Shown: positions 5,297 through 44,774, numbered from the whole stretch's first letter. The stretch: 63,999 bases of DNA, filler included, from Dirinaria sp. TL-2023a (GCA_051941275.1; 21 parts of 21 records of this genome joined end to end with filler, not necessarily neighbours in it), one strand, 5' to 3'. Made by a program: numbers and translations. The notes: generated from the letters alone by a model not told the origin.

Positions 5297-7996
5297 ATCA
5301 CGAATGTAAAATCACAATTTTGCAGGAGGATCCTGCCATCGTGTAGACAATGGAACAGCTGTCACTCGCGGCGATATACTATAAAGAGATCGGACAAGCT
5401 ATCAGCTTCTGATACGTCGCTGATTGATGCACGCTGAGCGGATCATATTATCTTGTGAAAAGGCTGACTCGTATAGGAAAACAGTTTTGATTTACCTGAA
5501 CAGAGCGACGACCGAAAACGTTGATGGTCACCGAAGTCTTCCAGTGTGAACTAGTTACTGCTTTCAAAACGAAGCAAAAGACGTTTTATCCTGTTAATAA
5601 GCTGCGAAACGTGCTTAATCGCCGGATTTGAATAAATTGATTGATACACATGATGTGCTGGTTCTTGATTCGTTCTATCATCTTGCGCTCGTATCATTTT
5701 CAAAGGACTCACTATTCAGTAATCGACATCTAGCCTCAAACATGACCTAAGTTATACCACGGCATATGATGGTTCAGCCATCGCTGCAGAGCTAGCAGCA
5801 TTTACTCTCGCGGATCTACGTAGCTCATACAATTGGCAAACTAAGATACGCAGTCTGCTAATAAAGTCAAGAGTACTACACCTGTGATAGTGCACTAATC
5901 GATTGAGGATGGATATTGTGACGATTACGATTAGAATCGTATCAATGATGAAGCAATGAACTATTAACACGTTGATCTCACACTCATGATAATCATCATG
6001 AGGATAAAAAGCGCGGTCACCGACGGAAATGTGTAACATTTTCAATCGGCAAAGTGGGTTCATAATGATTTCCTGCGATTGCGTCAATTAGCCTTGAGGG
6101 CCATGACAATTTCAAAAGCTTCACTTGTTCAGGTTNNNNNNNNNNNNNNNNNNNNNNNNNNNNNNNNNNNNNNNNNNNNTTAATTAATTAANNNNNNNNN
6201 NNNNNNNNNNNNNNNNNNNNNNNNNNNNNNNNNNNAAGACGGGAAGGAGAAGCCGAGAGGGCGGTCTGATATGTTGGTGATCAGGTTCGCACTGCAAAGC
6301 TCGGTGGCTTTTGTTGTCTGTCTATTCAACATTTCGCAAAATGTGTTCTCACATTCGTACACCTAATGGACTCTGCTCATTATTAGCAGTAAACCACGAA
6401 ATCTCATCATATGACAATGGCTGAGAGGCTGCAGCCCAGTAAGGGCATCTTGATTGCTGACGACGAGAGCTTTAAACCTGATCTGGATAGGCCCGACTTA
6501 CCTCGGTAGAATTGTTCGGGTTCAACCCCTTCAGGCGAAGGTCCGAAATCAGCCCTACAGGGCTGCCAGTATGTACTCATCGTAGTTGCTTACCTTACTT
6601 AGGCGACCCAACTTCAGCTCGGCACCGTCTATCGCTAGAGAGGAGTGATCGTCTATATCTACTTTATGTTCACAGAACGCAAGATACTAGACTATTATCG
6701 AACGACACTGGCCTCAGATACCACCCTGTATTCAGGCAACTGGAAGTATTTTCGTCCCAAGATATTCATACACTGTTAAAGGCCACGTGTCAATTCTCCG
6801 TGAGATCAGTGGGTCGCTCTTCTCGTTCCCAACCATGTTCATTAAACGGTATACCCTGGACAACCAACCAGTTCATGCGCTGGATCGCCCTTACTAAGCC
6901 TCCGGATGGCATCCACATCTCTGACCGACAGAGCTGAAAGGACCGATTGAGTGGAGCAATAATATGAGTGGGCCACGGAGCTGAGGGATTGGAGTCAGCT
7001 AATAGGAAGCCTCCTTTAAGCGCGCGTGCGCACTCTCGGCGGAGCTGGAGTTGACTCAGCAGCTCTCACTCTCCTTCTAGCTACTACTAGATACCGTCAT
7101 GGTTTTTTGGCCCCAAGGTGAGTACCTGACATCTCACATCTTACCTGAGGCTGCCCAGAACGGGTTTCATTCTCTCGGGCCGCGTTTCGTGCATTATTGC
7201 ATTAGCGCGCATAAGATATTGCATGTCAATGTGTCATGCATGTCTCGTACTGAGCCTCCACGTTCACGTACATCCAACGGTTCCTTGGATGAGCACCAGA
7301 GGAAGCAGCGCCTTTTTACTTGATCATCTGGTATAACTTCTCGCCTCGCAATTATTGATCACATTGAAAGCCATTGAAAGCCACCATAAGCCAAGGCGCA
7401 GGACTTTGACATGTGTTCAGGCTGAAAGCCTCCACTTCATCCGGAGATATGAGGAGACCAGGTGGAGACGGCTGGCAGCGTAGCATCGGCCCTGGATCAA
7501 CTACTGCTACAGACACTTCCAGAACGGTCACTCTCTCGTTCAGCCGTTGTACCACGACGGGATGGAGAAGGAATCTGGAAACTGGAATCAGTAGATTTTA
7601 CGTAAAGTTCGAGTACAGTCAGCGAAGGTGTAACGTTGGCTTGGTGTTCACCAAGGCAGAAAGTGAAGGTGTCGCTCACATGGAGGTCGTAGCGGTGAAT
7701 ATCACTTACTCACTTACTCACTAAGCCCATGGCATGATGATGGCAACCCCACAGTGAAATGAAACCCCTGAAGCCCTGAACCGGAAGCCGAAAGGAGCCG
7801 GACGCCGAGAACATACTTGAATGAAACATATTTAAATGATACAGCAATCCCCAGGAAACAGGAAAGAAAAGAGATAGTAGGCAACGCCGAGCTGCAAATA
7901 CGAGCAGCTCCAGCCCAAGTCACTCACTCACTCAATCTCCCTCAATCTTCAACCACCTCACTCTTTCCATTCCTGATCCCAAACAATCACTTCAAG

Positions 7997-8946
7997 ATGC
8001 TCGCCAACACCGCATTCTGTGTTTTCCTGCTCTCAGCACTATCAAGTATGGTTCCTCCTCCCCCCTCTACAATGAGCACAACAATCTCGTGATTCCACCT
8101 GCTGACCGCACCCCCGCAGATGTCTTAGCATCGCCTCTCTCGTCCCCTCTGACCAATCGCCAAATATCCTGCCCCCCAGGCCTTCAGTGTGGCCACGGCC
8201 CCGTCTGCACCATTGAAACCTGCGATCTTGAAGGGTGTGCCGATGCCGAGGTCTGTCAGGAGAGCCACAAGAAACGACAATTGGGATGCCCTCCTGGCGT
8301 TCCATGTGGACATGGCCCAGTCTGCACCATTGACACCTGCGACCTCGAAGGCTGTGCCGATGCAGAAGTCTGCCAGGACAGTAAAGAGAAGCGCCAAATC
8401 TCCTGTCCCCCCGGCGTCCACTGCGGGCCAGGGCCCGTCTGCACTGCCGCCACGTGCAATCTCGCCGGATGCGCCAACGCCAAAGTCTGCCAGAAGAGCA
8501 ACAGCAAACGGCAATTCGAATGCCCGCCTGGCACCGACTGTGGCCACGGCCCCGTCTGTACGGCAGAGCTGTGCAACCTCCCGGGGTGCGCCAACGCCGA
8601 TGTCTGCACCGGCACAGTTGACAAGCGAAGCGACAGCGTCGCTCCAACGTGCGATATCTGCATCAAAGAACCCGATGGCCAGATCGTCTGCGGCTGCACC
8701 ACGACTCTTCCTCCTCCTGCTCATCCCGCCCCGCAGCAGCTGAAGCAGCGCGAAGCGAAAATCTGCCCCCAGTACTGTATCGTCACCGCCGACGGGGAAT
8801 ACAAATGCGGGTGCGCGGCCGAACCGAAACTGGAGCGCCGTGAGCCGAGGGTTTGTCCGCTGTATTGCATCACGACGGACGAGGGGCAGGAGCTGTGCGG
8901 GTGCGCGGCGCAGGATTATCTCAAGTCTCATCCGGGCTCTGGGTGA
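7997..8946 (+). CDS. Secreted Kex2-processed Cys-rich repeat polyprotein; join(7997..8045,8120..8946)
   Basis: ATG 7997; intron GTATGG(8046)..GCTGAC..CAG(8119) splices in frame, giving MLANTAFCVFLLSALSNVLASP. Then four 6-Cys repeats separated by KR and three 4-Cys modules. Confidence 0.85.
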
Positions 8947-9212
8947 GTTGATATCACACGCCTTGCAAGATAGCAGGGACTGGGTGCATGGGATGGGGAT
9001 ACTTCATAGTATGCGCTGTCGAGACAGAAATGGTAGTCAGTTACATCTACTTGAGTTGCTGGAGCTATGAGGAGTTTTAAGGGGGCTGTCAATATCCTAC
9101 ATTGACATCAACGCTGGCCTTTTAACCCTTTCCTTTCCTTTCCTGCCCCCCTTCTCCCACAATACCACTCGGCACTTGTGGATCAAACACGCCCGTATCT
9201 CCGATCTATGGG

Positions 9213-9250
<38 letters not shown>
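9213..9250 (+). repeat. Poly-A homopolymer at contig end
   Basis: About 38 consecutive A just before the spacer; likely cause of the assembly break. Confidence 0.9.
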
Positions 9251-9252
<2 letters not shown>

Positions 9253-9352
9253 NNNNNNNNNNNNNNNNNNNNNNNNNNNNNNNNNNNNNNNNNNNNTTAA
9301 TTAATTAANNNNNNNNNNNNNNNNNNNNNNNNNNNNNNNNNNNNNNNNNNNN

Positions 9353-13602: not shown

Positions 13603-15025
13603 TGCGAGAGTCACACTGCTCGGTGAGCCGATGCTTCAGGTCCTTAACCGATGGATTCGAGGAATGTTCGTGCTTGCGATTGAGACATTGGCAGGAACAG
13701 TCGAAACCGCAGAATATGGAAATACTTTATATCGCTAGAGACTTGGCGCGAATAGTATTCAGCGCAAGTATGAGCATTATTGGAAACGATCCGCCACGAG
13801 TATGCGCCGATGCGCTTAAAGCGCAGTGCCGAACCGTCTTGCTATAACATGTCGCGGCTCCAAATAGAAAATGGGGAACTCATGAGATCTATGAGAGAAG
13901 TTTGCAGAATTGCAAAATGGTCTACGTCTTGTGGAGGTAAACATAGTGAGTGCCGCGAGTATCGCTACAACTCAAAGAGAGAGACACTGGATAAACCTAC
14001 GAAACTCGTCCCATTCCGCTTTCTAGACAGACTGAGCGCTACAAAGAAGACTTGAGATGATTACGCGGCCTCTTTCGCACGGCCGGTCGCATCTGGAAGA
14101 ACTCCCAGCTTAGAAGCAGGCGTCATGAGAATTTTCGCCGTGGGAGCGTCGAAGCCTTGGTCATACATACAGTATATTTCTCCAACTGCGCAACAACGCA
14201 GACGATACTAGACGAGTGAACCTTTGCCTCACCAAGATACCAATCTCAAATTGGACGTACATGAGTCTCGCCTGATCCGTCACCAGATTCAAGTATGGGA
14301 CAAACTCAGAAGACGGTCAAATCCTCTGTATCAGATGTCATTGCACCGCGAACTGTACTCTCAATCGAGAGTTCCGGGGTCCTGGTCACGGTAAGGGCGA
14401 CAGAACTCGTGATGACCATGAAAGCAATAATGCAGATCCGAGCAACAATTGAAGTGGTGCTAGATCAAGTACTCCGTACTCCAACTCTCCCTGATCTTAA
14501 GCGTGAGTGAAAACCTTGGCGCTTCCGCTCTAGCGGCTTGGCGCCTCTCTAAGTCTGGTCAACGGTCTTGTTGAGTCTCTGTGTACTAATCGCACCCATG
14601 CCTTGTTGCTATCGCTATGATGCGTATCGGACTGGGATCTCTTCTGATTTGTTGCCAATCGTTGAATAATATCCCCCTTCAGACTTTCTATTTGTCCGAG
14701 GAAAGCTGTAATGTACAGAGAATGTGAGGTGCAAACCATCATATTCACTCCCAAAGCACAGCCCACAAAGTAACGTTGACTTTGTGCTGAACTCAGTAGT
14801 CCGTTACCATTCAGGCATCCAGCTTGTGGCATGGCTCTAGGTCAGAGCGGTATAGTGTAGTCCTGAGCCATGATACTGATAGGTTACCGCCCTATCGGAC
14901 TTTTACTATTCTTAGAAAGGCTGCACGTCAGGCAACGAGGCTGAAAGACCGACAAGAACAGAACTTGACTTCGCTTTCAATTTCTCCAAGATCAGCAAAG
15001 CAACGCCATCATTTCAAGTCCCAGA

Positions 15026-15466
15026 ATGGAAGGCTTGGCCACTGCAGCCAGTGTCGCCGGAGTCATCCAGCTGGTTGGCAGCGTGAGAAAGCTCTATGAA
15101 TTCTGGGACTCCATCAAGGATGCGCCAGAGGAGATCCGTGCCATTGCGCTCGACTTAAGACTGCTCTTGAGCGTCTTGGCTGAGATTGCTTCCGACGCAC
15201 AACATGCTGAGCCCGACCAGACACTAGAAGCGGTGATGGAGGCATGTCACTTCAAAGTCAAGGCGCTGAACGCCATCGTCAACGAGATAGAGCCCAACCT
15301 CGTGTCTTCTAGTAGTCTCGTAAAGAAATGGGCAGCTGTGAAGGGCGTTTTGAAAGCTAAGAAGATCAACAAATTCCGAGATTCTTTGGGGGAGTTGAAG
15401 ATTACGTTGATGCTAGAGCGGCAAACTCAGAACGAGTAAGTTCCATGCATCACTTCATTATGCTAG
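15026..15466 (+). CDS. HeLo-like/SesA-type N-terminal domain of a fungal NLR/STAND-like protein (partial)
   Basis: MEGLATAASVAGVIQL...KLYEFWDSIKDAPEEI...KKWAAVKGVL; GTAAGT donor near 15436; remainder cut by contig end. Confidence 0.7.
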
Positions 15467-22447: not shown

Positions 22448-24738
22448 TCAACCCTTCCCAAAATCGCCCTTCTCCACCGCCGCCCCCACCATCTGATTCC
22501 CGTTCAGCACATCGGTGGTACAGATCAAGATGCGCCGCCTCTCCTCCTCCTGCTTGGCCACGAACCTTAGCGCCGCGATCTCCGTGTACGTGACCCCGCC
22601 CACGAACATCACCATCACCGTCTTCTTCTTGTTGCCCGCCCCCTGCTGGTGGCCCGTGAGCATATGCCGCGCCTTGACCGCCTGCTCCGAGGAGGCGGAG
22701 TCTGCTTTCTGCGCTTTGGTGAAGGTGTCGCCTTTGACGTTTTTGAGGACGTCTTCGAAGCCCGACCAGCCGTGCGCCGCCGAGGAAGGGTTGGGCGGCG
22801 GCGCAAGGGAGGAGAGGTATGGTTTTTGCAGCACGCACTGCACGAGCCGGATCGAGAGCGGGGCGTACATGCTGTACACGTACGCGATGTCGTCCGGCTC
22901 CTGCTCGTTCACTTCGTCGAGGATCAGGCGCAGCGGGCGGCGGATGGCCGCGTAGTTGGTTCCAGCGGCTGATGGCGTGGCGGCGGCGGTGCCGAGGAAC
23001 GCGTTACCCGTTCGGGATTGCAGGAGTTGCATCTTTTCGAGGGCGGATAGGGTCAGGAGGTGTTGGTAGCCGTAGGCGTGCAGGATCTGACGCTTGAAAT
23101 TGTCGAGGTCCTTTTGGCGCAGGCCTCCGGAGACGCATGATTCAAGGCATAGGAGCCGAAGGACGGTGAGGAGAGGCGCGTCTCGCGAGATGAGTTCCTC
23201 TATAGCGTCGTGCTGGGAGGAGGGGTCTGCTCCTGCAACCAAGTTCTGCTGGACTTCTAGCACGCGGCTGAAGATGTCGGAGTGCAAGGTTTGCTTTTCG
23301 ATGTCTTGGGCAAGGCCGACTTGAATCTTGAGGCTCTGTTGCTCGGATTGGTATGCTGGAAGTTTGTTGACAAAGTCACGTAGTTCAGAGGTGCTTTTGG
23401 CAACATGCCGGCTTTCATAGTCGCTTTGCAACCGTTTTGCGAATTTGTTGAGAAGCCGACTTCCTGTGGCGAAATTCGTGTCGCGGAGCTGAGCATACAA
23501 TTTATCGGAAGAGTCGAGCTGGATCTTACGCTTGCGGCTTTGCTGTGCATCAGGCGTCGTGTTCTGCTGGGACCCAGGCACAGGACCGACGATGGACGTG
23601 TTAATGTCCGCTTGGTTATACTGGATCCCGAAGAGCTCGTCTATCAGCCCCTCGTATGTCAACTGTGTGAGCAGTGGTGTGGAAAGGTCGACGTCTCGAT
23701 CAATGATGATTAAGCTCTCAATAGAGGCGCTTGGGATCATTCCTAACTGCGAGCGGCTGACATCGGTCGCCTCATCTGCAGAGGCCTCCGATCGCATGCG
23801 GAACAGCAAATCCATAAGACGACGAGCATGGTCGCCTTTGCCGATTATACGTGGAAAGAGCCCATACTTTTGCTGAATTTGCATAAGGCCTTGAGCTGCC
23901 AGGAATATCGATGTCGGATCCTTTCGCTATATGATTTTAGAAAGGTACTTCTGTCCTAAAAGATGACAAAGACATACTAGGAGTAAATCTCCGAAGGAGT
24001 CCTCAAGCGCCAAGGACAAGACATCCTGCTCAAGGGGAATGAAGTACAGAGATAGCGCCTCCACGCTGACATCGCCAAGGACTCCTGCTTCTTCGAGAAT
24101 CTTGTTGCAAACCAAGGTCCGCCGAGGGACCCAGATTACAGAGAACTCATGTTCGTTGCTACGATTCTTCTGCAGGCGCTTGATCTGGTCTACGTGAGGT
24201 GATGTCAGCAGGAAATGATGGCGTTGAGACTATAAATTCAAAGAGTAGTACGCTATAGAGCATGCTGTATCCAGTGATTGGATGATCTAGGGATCAAGAC
24301 TGACTCAGTAGAGTAGATGATTTTCTACGTAATCTACTTTTATGTCCCATTTAATGTGTCTGGACAAGATTGAATGCCCCAATCTTTGCAATGCAGGAAG
24401 AAGGTGAAGAAAATTGTTCAAGCTCAAAAATAAATGACAGCCATTGATCGGAAATAATCCTACGTACATACCAGCAACTGCTATGGCTTGACTGGCTTTC
24501 TCTCCACGAGCAAGGAAAATGATATTCTTCTGAGACGAGTCGACATTGTCGTTCTCCAGAAAGAATACTTTGTCAACGCCATATTCTTGGAGAGTGGAGA
24601 ACTTGATGAAGAGGCCGATTGGACCAGCCAATGATTTCTCAATCACTAGATTCTTCTTTCCACGGACCTGCATGGTTTAGCCTTGCGTGGACGGTGAATT
24701 CAGATAATGGAGTTTGCCTTACATACGCCGTGTAACAG
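22448..24738 (-). CDS. VPS33: Vacuolar protein sorting Sec1/Munc18-family protein Vps33 (5'-truncated, multi-exon)
   Basis: VRGKKNLVIEKSLAGPIGLFIKFSTLQEYGVDK; IIIDRDVD...LLTQLTYEGLIDE; DIAYVYSMYAPLSIRLVQ; VMFVGGVTYTEIAALRF. Confidence 0.95.
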
Positions 24739-28223: not shown

Positions 28224-29653
28224 CTACCTATCAACACTAAACAGCCTTCCCGGATGCCACCAGCCCAGAATCCCGATCGCGAGAACGACAGGCGCGAATT
28301 CCAATGCTAATCAATGAACCCCAATCAGTAAAATCCTTCCTAACCCATCCATAACAAAGTGAAAAAAGATGGAAGGGAAAACGGGGATTACACACCCCCG
28401 AACAGCGCCTCATGCGTCTGCGCAAACCCACCTACCCCCTGCGCCGTCTCGGCCAGGCGGAACACGGTCCGGAGATAGACGAGCAGGCTCGCGAGCACGA
28501 GCGCGGCGGTGAAACGCATCATGCCGCCTTCGCCGGAGGAGGTGGAGGATTTGCGGGTCTTGCGGATGAAGATGGAGAGGAGGGTTAGGAAGAGGAGGAA
28601 CTGGATCATTTTAATATTAGATATTCCAGGGGGGGGGGGGAGGTTTCGAAGCGAGATTGAAAGGGGAAAGAAGGGACAATAATCATACGGAAAAAACCTG
28701 AAACGCGAGACCCGCGAGCAGGATATCATTGCCTGTGTCGGGGTTCTTGCGATGGCTCTCGGACACCCCGATCAAGGCCGCGCCGGCCACTTGCACGATC
28801 GTCGAGACCACGTCTGCGGAGACGAAGATCGCGATGATGGATTTCCGGGAGAGGTCCAGAGGGCTGGTGGGTGCGCCGAGGAGGGCAATGAGGGATGTTA
28901 GGGTCGTGTAGATCCCACCGGAGAGGAAGACGGGGGCGACGACGATGAAGAAGTACGAGATTACGAAGTTTATCACGCTGTAGGGGTCGCCGGTGGGAGG
29001 AGGGGAGGAGAGCAGGCGGAATGCGTAGCCTGGATTTTTTTTATTTTGAAAAAAGGACTTTTAGTGTTTGCTCTTAAGATAGGAGAGATTTTTGGGAAGG
29101 CGTCGTAACATGAGTTGTATCGTCACATCCGCCAATGCTAAGAAATGCACACAAGAAAAAAGCAGATGGAGAAGCAGCGACAATAAGGGAGCAACATACC
29201 CACAACCTCAAAAACGGTAGTGGTGACTAGCAATATTGAGAACGCGTAAAGGCGATGAGCATAAAGGCGGTAGAGGTGGAGAATCAGGAGGAGCGCGTAA
29301 AGGACGAGAGCAAGGATTGCGAGCGCCTCATGAGGAGTATACCTGTGCAAGTTGTCAAAGGTAAATTTGGAAAGGCAAAGCATTGGATGGCTCAGTGAAT
29401 GGGTTGGGTAGAGTAGCAGACACATGGAATGGACGAATTTGTCTGATAGGGGAAGATGTAGATGTGCACACTGAAGGAACGGAAGCGCATGGATTAAGAG
29501 ATTGACAATACTCAATTCCGGGAATGAACATACAAGACGAACTCACCCGTAAATGATGATAGGAGCATCGTTCTCCCCATTAGGGTTTGGGATCGCAGGA
29601 TCCACGTAGCCTTCAATGGGCGCTTCGCCCGGCGCACTGTGATAGTCGCTCAT
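28224..29653 (-). CDS. RTA1-like 7-TM protein (multi-exon)
   Basis: N-terminus ...NPNGENDAPIIIYG|YTP; FEVVG|YAFR; FIVVAPVFLSGGIY; QVAGA; LAGLAFQ; LRTVFRLAETAQG; ALEFAPV...WWHPGR. Confidence 0.88.
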
Positions 29654-43380: not shown

Positions 43381-44774
43381 CTACACCCACTCCACAGGCG
43401 TCTTCAAAACATTCAGCAGCCGCTCCTCCCGACTGCCCTTTTCGGGCTCGTGCATATACATCCACTGCGCCGTCAGCGGCAGACTCATGAGGATACTCTC
43501 GACCCTCGCGCCAGGGGTCTGCAGCCCGAACGCGGTGCCGCGGTCGTGCACGAGGTTGAACTCGACGTACCGCCCGCGGCGCAGCTGCTGCCACTGTTTT
43601 TCTCGCTGGCCGAACTCCATGCCGCGCCGCCTCTCGATGATGGGGAGGTAGCCCGGCAAGAAGGCGTCGAGGCAGTCCTTCACGAACGAGAAAAGTTGTT
43701 CCTGGTCCTTCTCCTCGGCGTCGAGGTCGTCGAAGAAGATGCCGCCCACGCCGCGCGATTCCCGCCGGTGCGGGATGTGGAAGTATCGATCGCACCACGC
43801 TTTGAAGCGCGGGTAGTACCCCCTGTCGTGCCTGTCGCAGGCGGTCTTGATCGTGCGGTGGAAATGGATGGCGTCTTCGTCGAAGAGGTAGGAGGGGGTA
43901 AGGTCCGTCCCGCCGCCGAACCACCACGCGTTGCAGTCCCCCGACTCGCGGTCCATGGTCTCGAAGTAGCGGTAGTTGAGGTGCACGGTCGGCGCCATTG
44001 GGTTCGACGGGTGCAGCACCATGCTCAGGCCCGCGGCGAAGAATTCCAGGCTTTCGACCGACGGGTCCAAGGCTTTGTGGTTTACCCGCATCTTTTCGAT
44101 GGCCGGTCGCGGCAGGGTGCCGTATACGATGCTGGTGTTCACGCCCGCTTTCTCGAACACGGAGCCGTCTTGCAGCACGCATGAGATCCCGCCCCCGCCT
44201 GTGGGCCGCGTCCAGGTGTCTTCGCGGAAGCGGTGCTCTGGGTCGAGTTTTTCGAGCTCCGACACGATGTGCCGTTGTTGCGTTTTGATCAAGTCTTCCA
44301 TGCGCAGGCGCATCGGTGAGGAGGACGTTATGCCGGATTCCCGTTTGCGGAGGGTGTCACGTTCTGCGATTGTTGGGGCGTCGTTGTGCTGGGGTTGGAG
44401 CCTGGTGCTGGTCGTCGTCTGATTGAGGAGAGGTTAGAGAGATGGTATATAAGGTGGGGGTTTGTGGGGGGAAGATACCCTCGTACCATGGAGTAGATGA
44501 TGGAGCCGACCAGGACGATGCCGATGCAGATGCGGGTTTTAGGGTAAGCGACTGTACCGCCTTGTTGGCGCGCGGCTTGAGCAGCTACACTGGCAGAGAT
44601 GGGAGAGGAATTCTGAGGAGAGGCTCTGGTGTAGACGAGGGGTTTTGGAACTTGTGATGCTTTGGTGGGGGTGGATTGGCCATCGGACTGGAGGCGTCGG
44701 ATCATGGAAAGCTTTTGAGTGCGGTGGGTGTTTTGGAGAAACGGCCTGTGTGCCCAGCGACAAGATGCTGCCAT
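43381..44774 (-). CDS. HEM13: Oxygen-dependent coproporphyrinogen III oxidase; intron 44419..44486
   Basis: GGGISCVLQDGSVFEKAGVN, HPSNPMAPTVHLNYRYF, WWFGGGTDLTP, RGVGGIFFDD, QQLRRGRYVEFNLVHDRGT. Confidence 0.96.

Follow-up and report, generated by a model that had tools for sequence, protein, structure and literature searches.

The described systems that come closest to the gene analyzed here are the fungal KEPs (Le Marquer, 2019, PMC6339444; Umemura, 2020, PMC7329392), with which it shares a signal peptide, tandem units separated by KR or RR, and a unit copy number that varies between species. According to the main text of these two surveys, the products of KEPs are for the most part short peptides, either linear or cyclised (pheromones and ustiloxin-type cores), whereas each unit of the present protein is 28-40 residues long and contains either 4 or 6 Cys; furthermore, two unrelated unit classes are combined in a single precursor, unlike in the KEPs described there. 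A term search of the main text of both surveys retrieved no 'lichen', no 'Lecanoromycetes' and no disulfide-rich unit, and the word 'cysteine' occurs in one of the two main texts only for pheromones with two Cys and is absent from the other. Kex2 sites also part the repeats, of 31-55 amino acids, in Rep1 and Hum3 of Ustilago maydis: Rep1 is reported to be proteolytically processed to peptides of 35-53 amino acids, and the repeats of both proteins are characterized as amphipathic and as assembling into amyloid-like fibrils at the wall of the hypha (PMC4617103). Accordingly, the view taken in a preliminary description of the locus, that known precursors of this kind mostly yield short peptides, holds for the surveyed KEPs but cannot be extended to length as such, which is not unusual by itself given the Rep1 products. 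The peptides predicted here belong to the same size class as those of Rep1; the repeats of Rep1 and Hum3 are not described as cysteine-rich in that source, and our family searches returned no sequence relationship between the two groups.

Another point of comparison is provided by the K2PP effectors (SnTox3, ToxA, SIX1/4/6). According to the SnTox3 preprint, Kex2 removes pro-domains in vitro, and the Kex2 motifs tested and then searched for in that study were LxxR, KR and RR. The precursor described here has the same type of short disordered pro-region, ending in one of these motifs, in front of a Cys-rich part (L-T-N-R, with pLDDT below 50 at residues 1-14 of the modelled protein). The K2PP effectors as described there consist of one pro-domain and one folded domain, in contrast to the present precursor, which has many modules and would be cut seven times.

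Single secreted precursors from which several disulfide-rich products are released at linker sites exist in plants (the Ib-AMP, cyclotide and NaPI precursors, which involve different proteases) and in fungi (the Ustilago KP6 and yeast K1 preprotoxins). The underlying logic is the same, although our searches detected no similarity of the present protein, in sequence or fold, to anything solved. The open-access main texts searched contain no description of this family or of a cysteine-rich Kex2 polyprotein in lichens; in the accessible text of a preprint on the Xanthoria secretome, novel lichen-specific secreted families are reported and the terms Kex2 and cysteine are absent. Given these comparisons, we rate the gene as a KEP-type precursor that combines two new types of disulfide-rich module and comes from a lineage for which no such precursors have been described.

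The window, that is, the whole stretch of DNA that was analyzed (63,999 nucleotides including filler, from Dirinaria sp. TL-2023a, GCA_051941275.1), is a chain of contigs of approximately 3 kb, with N44-TTAATTAATTAA-N44 spacers every ~3.1 kb at 20 junctions between 3019 and 61560 (e.g., 9253-9352). Because the contigs were joined, genes across a spacer are not genomic neighbors, and the true neighborhood of the gene is limited to 6236-9252. This contig of 3,017 bp holds, in the 1.7 kb upstream of the gene, one sizeable ORF (6491-6934) without a Pfam match. Approximately 270 nt 3' of the stop codon and two bases before the contig end, there is a run of 38 A (9213-9250), which could be either a genomic homopolymer at an assembly break or poly(A)-like. 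Other contigs of the window carry a coproporphyrinogen III oxidase gene (43384-44433, minus strand) as well as genes for a SesA/NACHT N-terminal domain (14969-15436), an RTA1-like protein (28391-29060) and a Sec1-family protein (22451-24676), the latter three being consistent with an ascomycete source. The coproporphyrinogen III oxidase is 99% identical to its counterpart in a metagenome-assembled genome of Dirinaria sp., followed among the named matches by proteins of other lichen fungi, which places the source among the lichen mycobionts (Lecanoromycetes), in the Caliciaceae or very near to them.

Translation of the window reveals a long open frame on the plus strand that contains the interval 8155-8630, and the gene was delineated at 7997-8946 on this strand, with two exons and a 74-nt phase-1 intron. 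Exon 1 (7997-8045) starts with the ATG at 7997 and encodes 16 hydrophobic signal-peptide codons followed by the first base of a split codon. The intron (8046-8119) has the form GTATGG...CAG, splits an AAT codon (Asn) and contains a branch-like CTGAC at 8102, 14 nt 5' of the 3' splice site; if retained, it leads to a stop after 31 codons. Exon 2 (8120-8946) encodes the end of the signal peptide, a propeptide, four units of type A, three units of type B and the stop codon. The translation of 8122-8946 in frame +1 comprises 274 residues, beginning with VLASPLSSPLTNR, and there is no Met upstream in the exon's own frame. By eye, applying the -3/-1 rule, a putative signal-peptidase site can be placed at V-L-A (8122-8130), with the cut after A and before S-P; the motif (V/A)LASP at this position is conserved throughout the family. 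The propeptide that follows (8131-8160) has 10 residues and ends with L-T-N-R, an LxxR kexin motif.

Several features support the spliced signal peptide that was proposed in the preliminary description. Along with the hydrophobic exon 1 and the canonical splice signals, the place and phase of the intron are conserved: an exon 1 of 16 codons plus 1 nt, a phase-1 intron and an exon 2 that opens with (A/V)LASP are common to two distant metagenome loci (L002 and L003), and the layout of two full-length database gene models (P0035 and P0002), including the 16-codon plus 1-nt exon 1, matches that of the window gene. The homologue alignment spans the whole length of the exon 2 protein. An N-terminal signal peptide, as in KEPs, is recognizable both by eye and by homology. 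In four RNA runs from one lichen-metagenome sample, approximately 8-9% of the sampled words are present; none of the RNA-library contigs map in three of these runs, and in the fourth, a single contig of 157 nt maps to 8365-8521 with 11 mismatches (~93% identity), without overlapping the intron; this contig could represent DNA carry-over and does not count as evidence that the gene is spliced or expressed. A GTGAGT hexamer (8943-8948) overlaps the TGA stop codon, and an alternative 3' splice donor at this position is conceivable; given that the homologues end at about the same place, the stop at 8944-8946 is probably genuine.

The four A units, all on the plus strand, are consecutive and consist of 39 residues each. 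They conform to the consensus and to the spacing C-5-C-5-C-4-C-4-C-5-C claimed in the preliminary description: in the frame +1 translation, each unit contains 6 Cys and has as its first residue a Gln that immediately follows an Arg (TNR, KKR, EKR and SKR precede units 1 to 4, respectively). Unit 1 (8161-8277) ends with KKR, unit 2 (8278-8394) with EKR, unit 3 (8395-8511) with SKR and unit 4 (8512-8628) with DKR; the net charges, which for both unit classes were computed on sequences stripped of their C-terminal basic residues, are -6, -6, +2 and -5, so that the first two units are acidic and the third basic, as was originally noticed, and the fourth is acidic as well. The open frame does not end with these units and runs on to 8946 through three additional units with 4 Cys each, so the four released peptides originally envisaged become seven peptides in two classes. 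B unit 1 (8629-8751; Cys spacing 2,9,1) has a Pro-rich tail that ends with L-K-Q-R, an LxxR motif, B unit 2 (8752-8841; spacing 3,9,1) ends with L-E-R-R, and the C-terminal B unit 3 (8842-8943; spacing 3,9,1) is followed by TGA at 8944-8946. All seven junctions of the protein (LTNR, KKR, EKR, SKR, DKR, LKQR and LERR) are of the LxxR, KR or RR type; the KR sites are those previously recognized, and for LTNR|Q, the first site, an LxxR kexin motif is a better reading than 'NR'. With four A and three B units at seven such junctions, the protein has the series of similar repeats bounded by KR/RR or LxxR that characterizes KEPs.

Tandem Repeats Finder detects a 117-bp period at 8158-8444. The pairwise nucleotide identity between the A units is 62-77%, with 9-16 synonymous-only codon differences per pair, which indicates that these units are old copies under constraint at the peptide level. 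When all six frames of the 64-kb window are translated, the Cys patterns of the units do not recur outside this gene; given this uniqueness and the strength of the homologue matches (down to E = 2.8e-60), the unit array cannot be attributed to chance.

The word-indexed search yielded 34 relatives (E-values from 2.8e-60 to 1.7e-5, 37-55% identity), without a Pfam domain. A profile built from the relatives was then compared to 1.84 billion representative proteins, the check that had been suggested for the unit, and matched 39 clusters at E <= 0.001, 36 of them at E <= 1e-10, which delineate a small family without a consistent Pfam domain. The 39 profile matches are 41-393 residues long and are composed of A-type and B-type modules, and none of them is fused to another domain. 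No cluster at least 90% identical to the window protein was returned. All three named members belong to the Lecanoromycetes (Dirinaria sp., Stereocaulon virgatum and 'Lecanoromycetidae sp.'); the Dirinaria sp. member is 51% identical to the window protein and is probably a paralogue in the same genome. Ten metagenome loci with family members were recovered (L001-L010), and for the homogentisate dioxygenase encoded next to the family member in one of these (L003), the best named relatives, with more than 77% identity, all come from Lecanoromycetes. No named non-lichen fungus was found among the family matches, three of which carry names, and on these sequence data the family is likely to be restricted to lichen fungi.

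The module mix varies between family members (AAAABBB in the window protein; AABB, ABB, AAA, bbbb and others elsewhere), with the Cys spacing of each unit preserved. One subfamily (L003-L010, P0036 and P0053; 9959-10627 in L003) combines five short, nearly identical B-like repeats of 4 Cys with a single A-like module whose C-terminal half is altered; the first four repeats end with KDKR or KEKR, so that the sequence looks like that of a textbook Kex2 repeat protein. A divergent subgroup of five proteins (P0028, P0030, P0040, P0050 and P0058) is made of half-A modules with 4 Cys each (spacing 4,4,5), and the linkers between these modules contain no Arg; judging by these modules, the C-terminal half of the A unit would evidently be able to stand alone. 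At the position after the second Cys-Gly of the A units (e.g., 8200-8202), Pro is found in 57% and His in 34% of 87 units, with H, H, P and H in the four units of the window protein. L001 (7495-7749) and L002 (9992-10351) encode nearly identical small members with one A unit followed by B units; in the L001 copy, Arg replaces the first Cys of B1 and the open frame ends early, so that this copy may be decaying or affected by a sequencing error.

The apparent damage to the L001 homologue, the lack of any cluster at 90% or higher identity to the window protein, and the location of the gene on a 3,017-bp contig that ends in a run of 38 A would all fit a non-functional gene, i.e., a repeat that is decaying or was assembled wrongly on a short contig of metagenomic origin. 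Given that the ORF of 275 codons is intact, with all 36 Cys in register and with canonical splice signals, that synonymous differences are common between the units and that the homologues share the architecture, we consider this explanation extremely improbable.

Evidence of processing comes from the distribution of basic sites across the family. In 63 family proteins (P0001-P0063), modules were located by their Cys spacing and basic pairs were mapped to cores and linkers. The pattern [KR]R does not occur in 5,214 core residues, compared to 197 occurrences in 4,031 linker residues (4.9 per 100). Altogether, 160 of the 194 linkers contain KR or RR, another 19 contain a lone Arg, and the 15 linkers without Arg all belong to the five divergent proteins mentioned above, which, from their sequences, may be unprocessed. 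Among 87 distinct A units, Arg occupies the position four residues before the first Cys (P1) in 82% and Leu occupies P4 in 62%; the residue at P1' is mostly Gln (61%) and less often Gly (22%). Many relatives possess two sites per linker, namely KR and, after a spacer of 6-9 residues, L-x-x-R|Q, which implies that the spacer is excised; this spacer is absent in the window protein and in the Dirinaria paralogue, where KR abuts Gln.

The alternative with which these data have to be reconciled is an unprocessed modular protein, secreted or located in the cell wall, whose seven modules would be beads on flexible basic linkers, with a role in the thallus matrix, adhesion or the surface. The Arg-free linkers of the divergent relatives (15 of 194) indicate that joined modules are viable, and A-type modules precede B-type modules in every family member (63 proteins), an order that would be unneeded if the peptides act separately. 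Against such a protein stand the complete exclusion of dibasic sites from the cores and their presence in 160 of the 194 linkers, the paired sites that imply an excised spacer, and the conservation of Gln directly after Arg; hence we regard it as unlikely. The sequence evidence supports a secreted, spliced precursor with Cys-rich units parted by kexin-type sites. The original proposal of a Kex2-processed polyprotein is strengthened by the family-wide conservation of these sites and by the conserved intron, and in part by predicted disorder at the junctions (see below), with the correction that seven peptides rather than four would be released.

Structure prediction with AlphaFold2 for one A unit (39-row alignment) gave a model of moderate confidence (pLDDT 70.7), with little regular structure besides a helix at residues 30-37. 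For the whole exon 2 protein (59-row alignment), the mean pLDDT is 69.6 and the pTM is 0.27; the latter value implies that there is no fixed arrangement between the modules, i.e., beads on a string. The segments with pLDDT below 50 (residues 1-14, 52-58, 168-174 and 197-212) correspond to the propeptide/A1, A1/A2, A4/B1 and B1/B2 junctions, that is, four of the seven; the A2/A3, A3/A4 and B2/B3 junctions are outside such segments. A beta-hairpin is predicted in B1 (180-190), followed by the low-confidence tail at 197-212, and in B2 a hairpin with a short helix, with the reservation that alignment cover is near zero over A2 and B2, so that the model rests on little in these units. In B3, there are blocks with pLDDT of 88-96, with strands at 249-251 and 257-259 and a helix at 261-269 (a hairpin, then a helix).

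The unit scaffold, which was not recognized in the preliminary description, has no match in Pfam, among PDB sequences or among solved folds. A Foldseek search of PDB, which had been suggested along with the structure prediction, returned no match at E <= 0.001 (best E = 9.2 for the A-unit model and 2.3 for the whole model); local matches of approximately 30 residues to Hsp70/BiP had E-values above 4 and were taken as noise. Likewise, VIA-align against 48,161 chains yielded no Z >= 2 for either model, and neither phmmer nor a profile search detected a significant match among the PDB sequences. Given that the fold searches used small and moderately confident models, they indicate that nothing known is recognized and do not by themselves show a new fold. 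In Pfam, the window protein has no match above the threshold, the nearest entry being FOLN (follistatin/osteonectin EGF-like), whose score of 10.3 bits (E = 0.86) lies below its cut-off of 21.1, and 59 family members give only four different weak matches, each in a single member. In the ESM Atlas, the cluster nearest to the whole protein is 'Pheromone 1' of Ascomycota, at 0.78, a value too low to count as more than a lead, and a single A unit yielded no usable match.

Two classes of small Cys-rich proteins deserve specific comparison. The CS-alpha/beta defensins have six Cys, with a CxxxC in the helix that is bridged to a CxC in the last strand, and the order is helix, then hairpin. The B units share the CxxxC ... 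CxC arrangement with these defensins (plectasin type) but contain 4 Cys and are predicted to adopt a strand-strand-helix order, with CxxxC ahead of the first strand; no Foldseek or VIA-align match was obtained with the whole-protein model, the one model that covers the B units, so that this comparison is a weak one. Hydrophobins have eight Cys with two CC doublets; the units described here have 6 or 4 Cys, and in the window protein there is neither a CC doublet nor a Pfam hydrophobin match.

The signal peptide combined with Kex2-separated repeats is also the logic of RiPP-type precursors, of which the ustiloxin/dikaritin KEPs are examples, so that the units could in principle be cross-linked, methylated or cyclised by dedicated enzymes. 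A gene for a DUF3328 (UstYa-like) protein is found near 22% of the KEP genes in one of the surveys (Umemura, 2020, PMC7329392). Given the size of the contig in the window, tailoring genes were sought at the homologous loci L002 and L003, where ORFs of at least 65 amino acids were compared to Pfam (those shorter than 120 amino acids within ~8 kb for L002 and ~6 kb for L003, those of at least 120 amino acids across both loci). None of the scanned ORFs matches DUF3328, a tyrosinase or a methyltransferase; the DUF3328 gene that marks ust-RiPS/dikaritin precursors, often together with a tyrosinase gene, was thus not found among these ORFs at either locus. The neighbors include a PX-domain protein, an amine oxidase, a kinase, an LRR protein and a glycosyl hydrolase at L002, and an FMO-like protein, a fungal transcription factor, CK2 beta, the homogentisate dioxygenase and an MFS transporter at L003, with no neighbor in common. 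The lack of DUF3328, tyrosinase and shared neighbors among the ORFs scanned at the two loci renders an ustiloxin-type RiPP pathway unlikely. Furthermore, the length of the units (28-40 residues) and their even Cys counts are typical of disulfide mini-proteins and not of RiPP cores, which have 4-10 residues. Taken with the gene neighborhoods, this makes a RiPP-type precursor a very unlikely explanation.

The cysteine content of the protein (36 Cys in 274 residues, with 6 in each A and 4 in each B module) raises the question of secreted metallothionein-like peptides, in which thiolates and the His of CGHGP would bind metals. Lichens accumulate metals, the peptides are acidic, and His alternates with Pro at one conserved position (34% His), all of which would be compatible with metal binding. 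Nevertheless, disulfides are favored in the oxidising ER and the Cys count is even in all modules; in addition, CxC/CxxC clusters of the metallothionein type are few and there is no Pfam metallothionein match. Metal binding of this kind appears highly improbable.

Given the architecture of the precursor and the family-wide conservation of the sites, we consider it likely that the window gene encodes a kexin-processed polyprotein that releases disulfide-rich mini-proteins. Secretion, cleavage, disulfide formation and pyroglutamate formation are inferred from the established knowledge of the fungal secretory pathway. The signal peptide would take the precursor into the ER and would be cut off after V-L-A, and disulfides would form within each module (6 Cys in A, 4 Cys in B). 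In the Golgi, kexin (a Kex2-type protease) would cut after LTNR, KKR, EKR, SKR, DKR, LKQR and LERR, and trimming of the C-terminal basic residues by a carboxypeptidase would yield four A peptides (approximately 36-37 residues, with computed masses of ~3.6-3.7 kDa) and three B peptides (28-40 residues, ~3.0-4.2 kDa). N-terminal Gln can cyclise to pyroglutamate, and the four A peptides would be expected to undergo this modification.

The action of the products is the least certain step. Most likely, they would act outside the hypha on the photobiont or on associated microbes, as signals, toxins or inhibitors; the next best guess, with the Ustilago repellents as the analogy, would be a role in structure or at the surface. 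Of the seven predicted peptides, six are acidic, which speaks against antimicrobials of the classical cationic type and most membrane-active peptides; this character would suit ligands, inhibitors, toxins or cation binders better. Given the apparent restriction to lichen fungi, it would be attractive to place the peptides in thallus interactions. Legumes control bacteroids by means of nodule-specific cysteine-rich peptides, and a fungal counterpart would be a family of symbiosis peptides in which one precursor delivers a tunable mix of A and B products that act on the algal photobiont or on the thallus microbiota, with A and B representing two mini-protein folds not seen before. We consider this more specific version unlikely.

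Little is understood in molecular terms of how a lichen fungus communicates with and controls its alga and the associated microbes; the foremost candidates are secreted proteins of an 'effector-like' kind. The family described here is small, so far confined to Lecanoromycetes, lacks any known domain and appears to be built to deliver several stable mini-proteins per transcript. It would add modules with multiple disulfides to the known range of fungal Kex2 precursors, which so far covers short peptides (linear or cyclic) and amphipathic repellents, and the two compact scaffolds, A and B, may interest peptide engineers. For the biology of lichens, the family provides concrete candidate peptides of 3-4 kDa for work on the photobiont and on bacteria.
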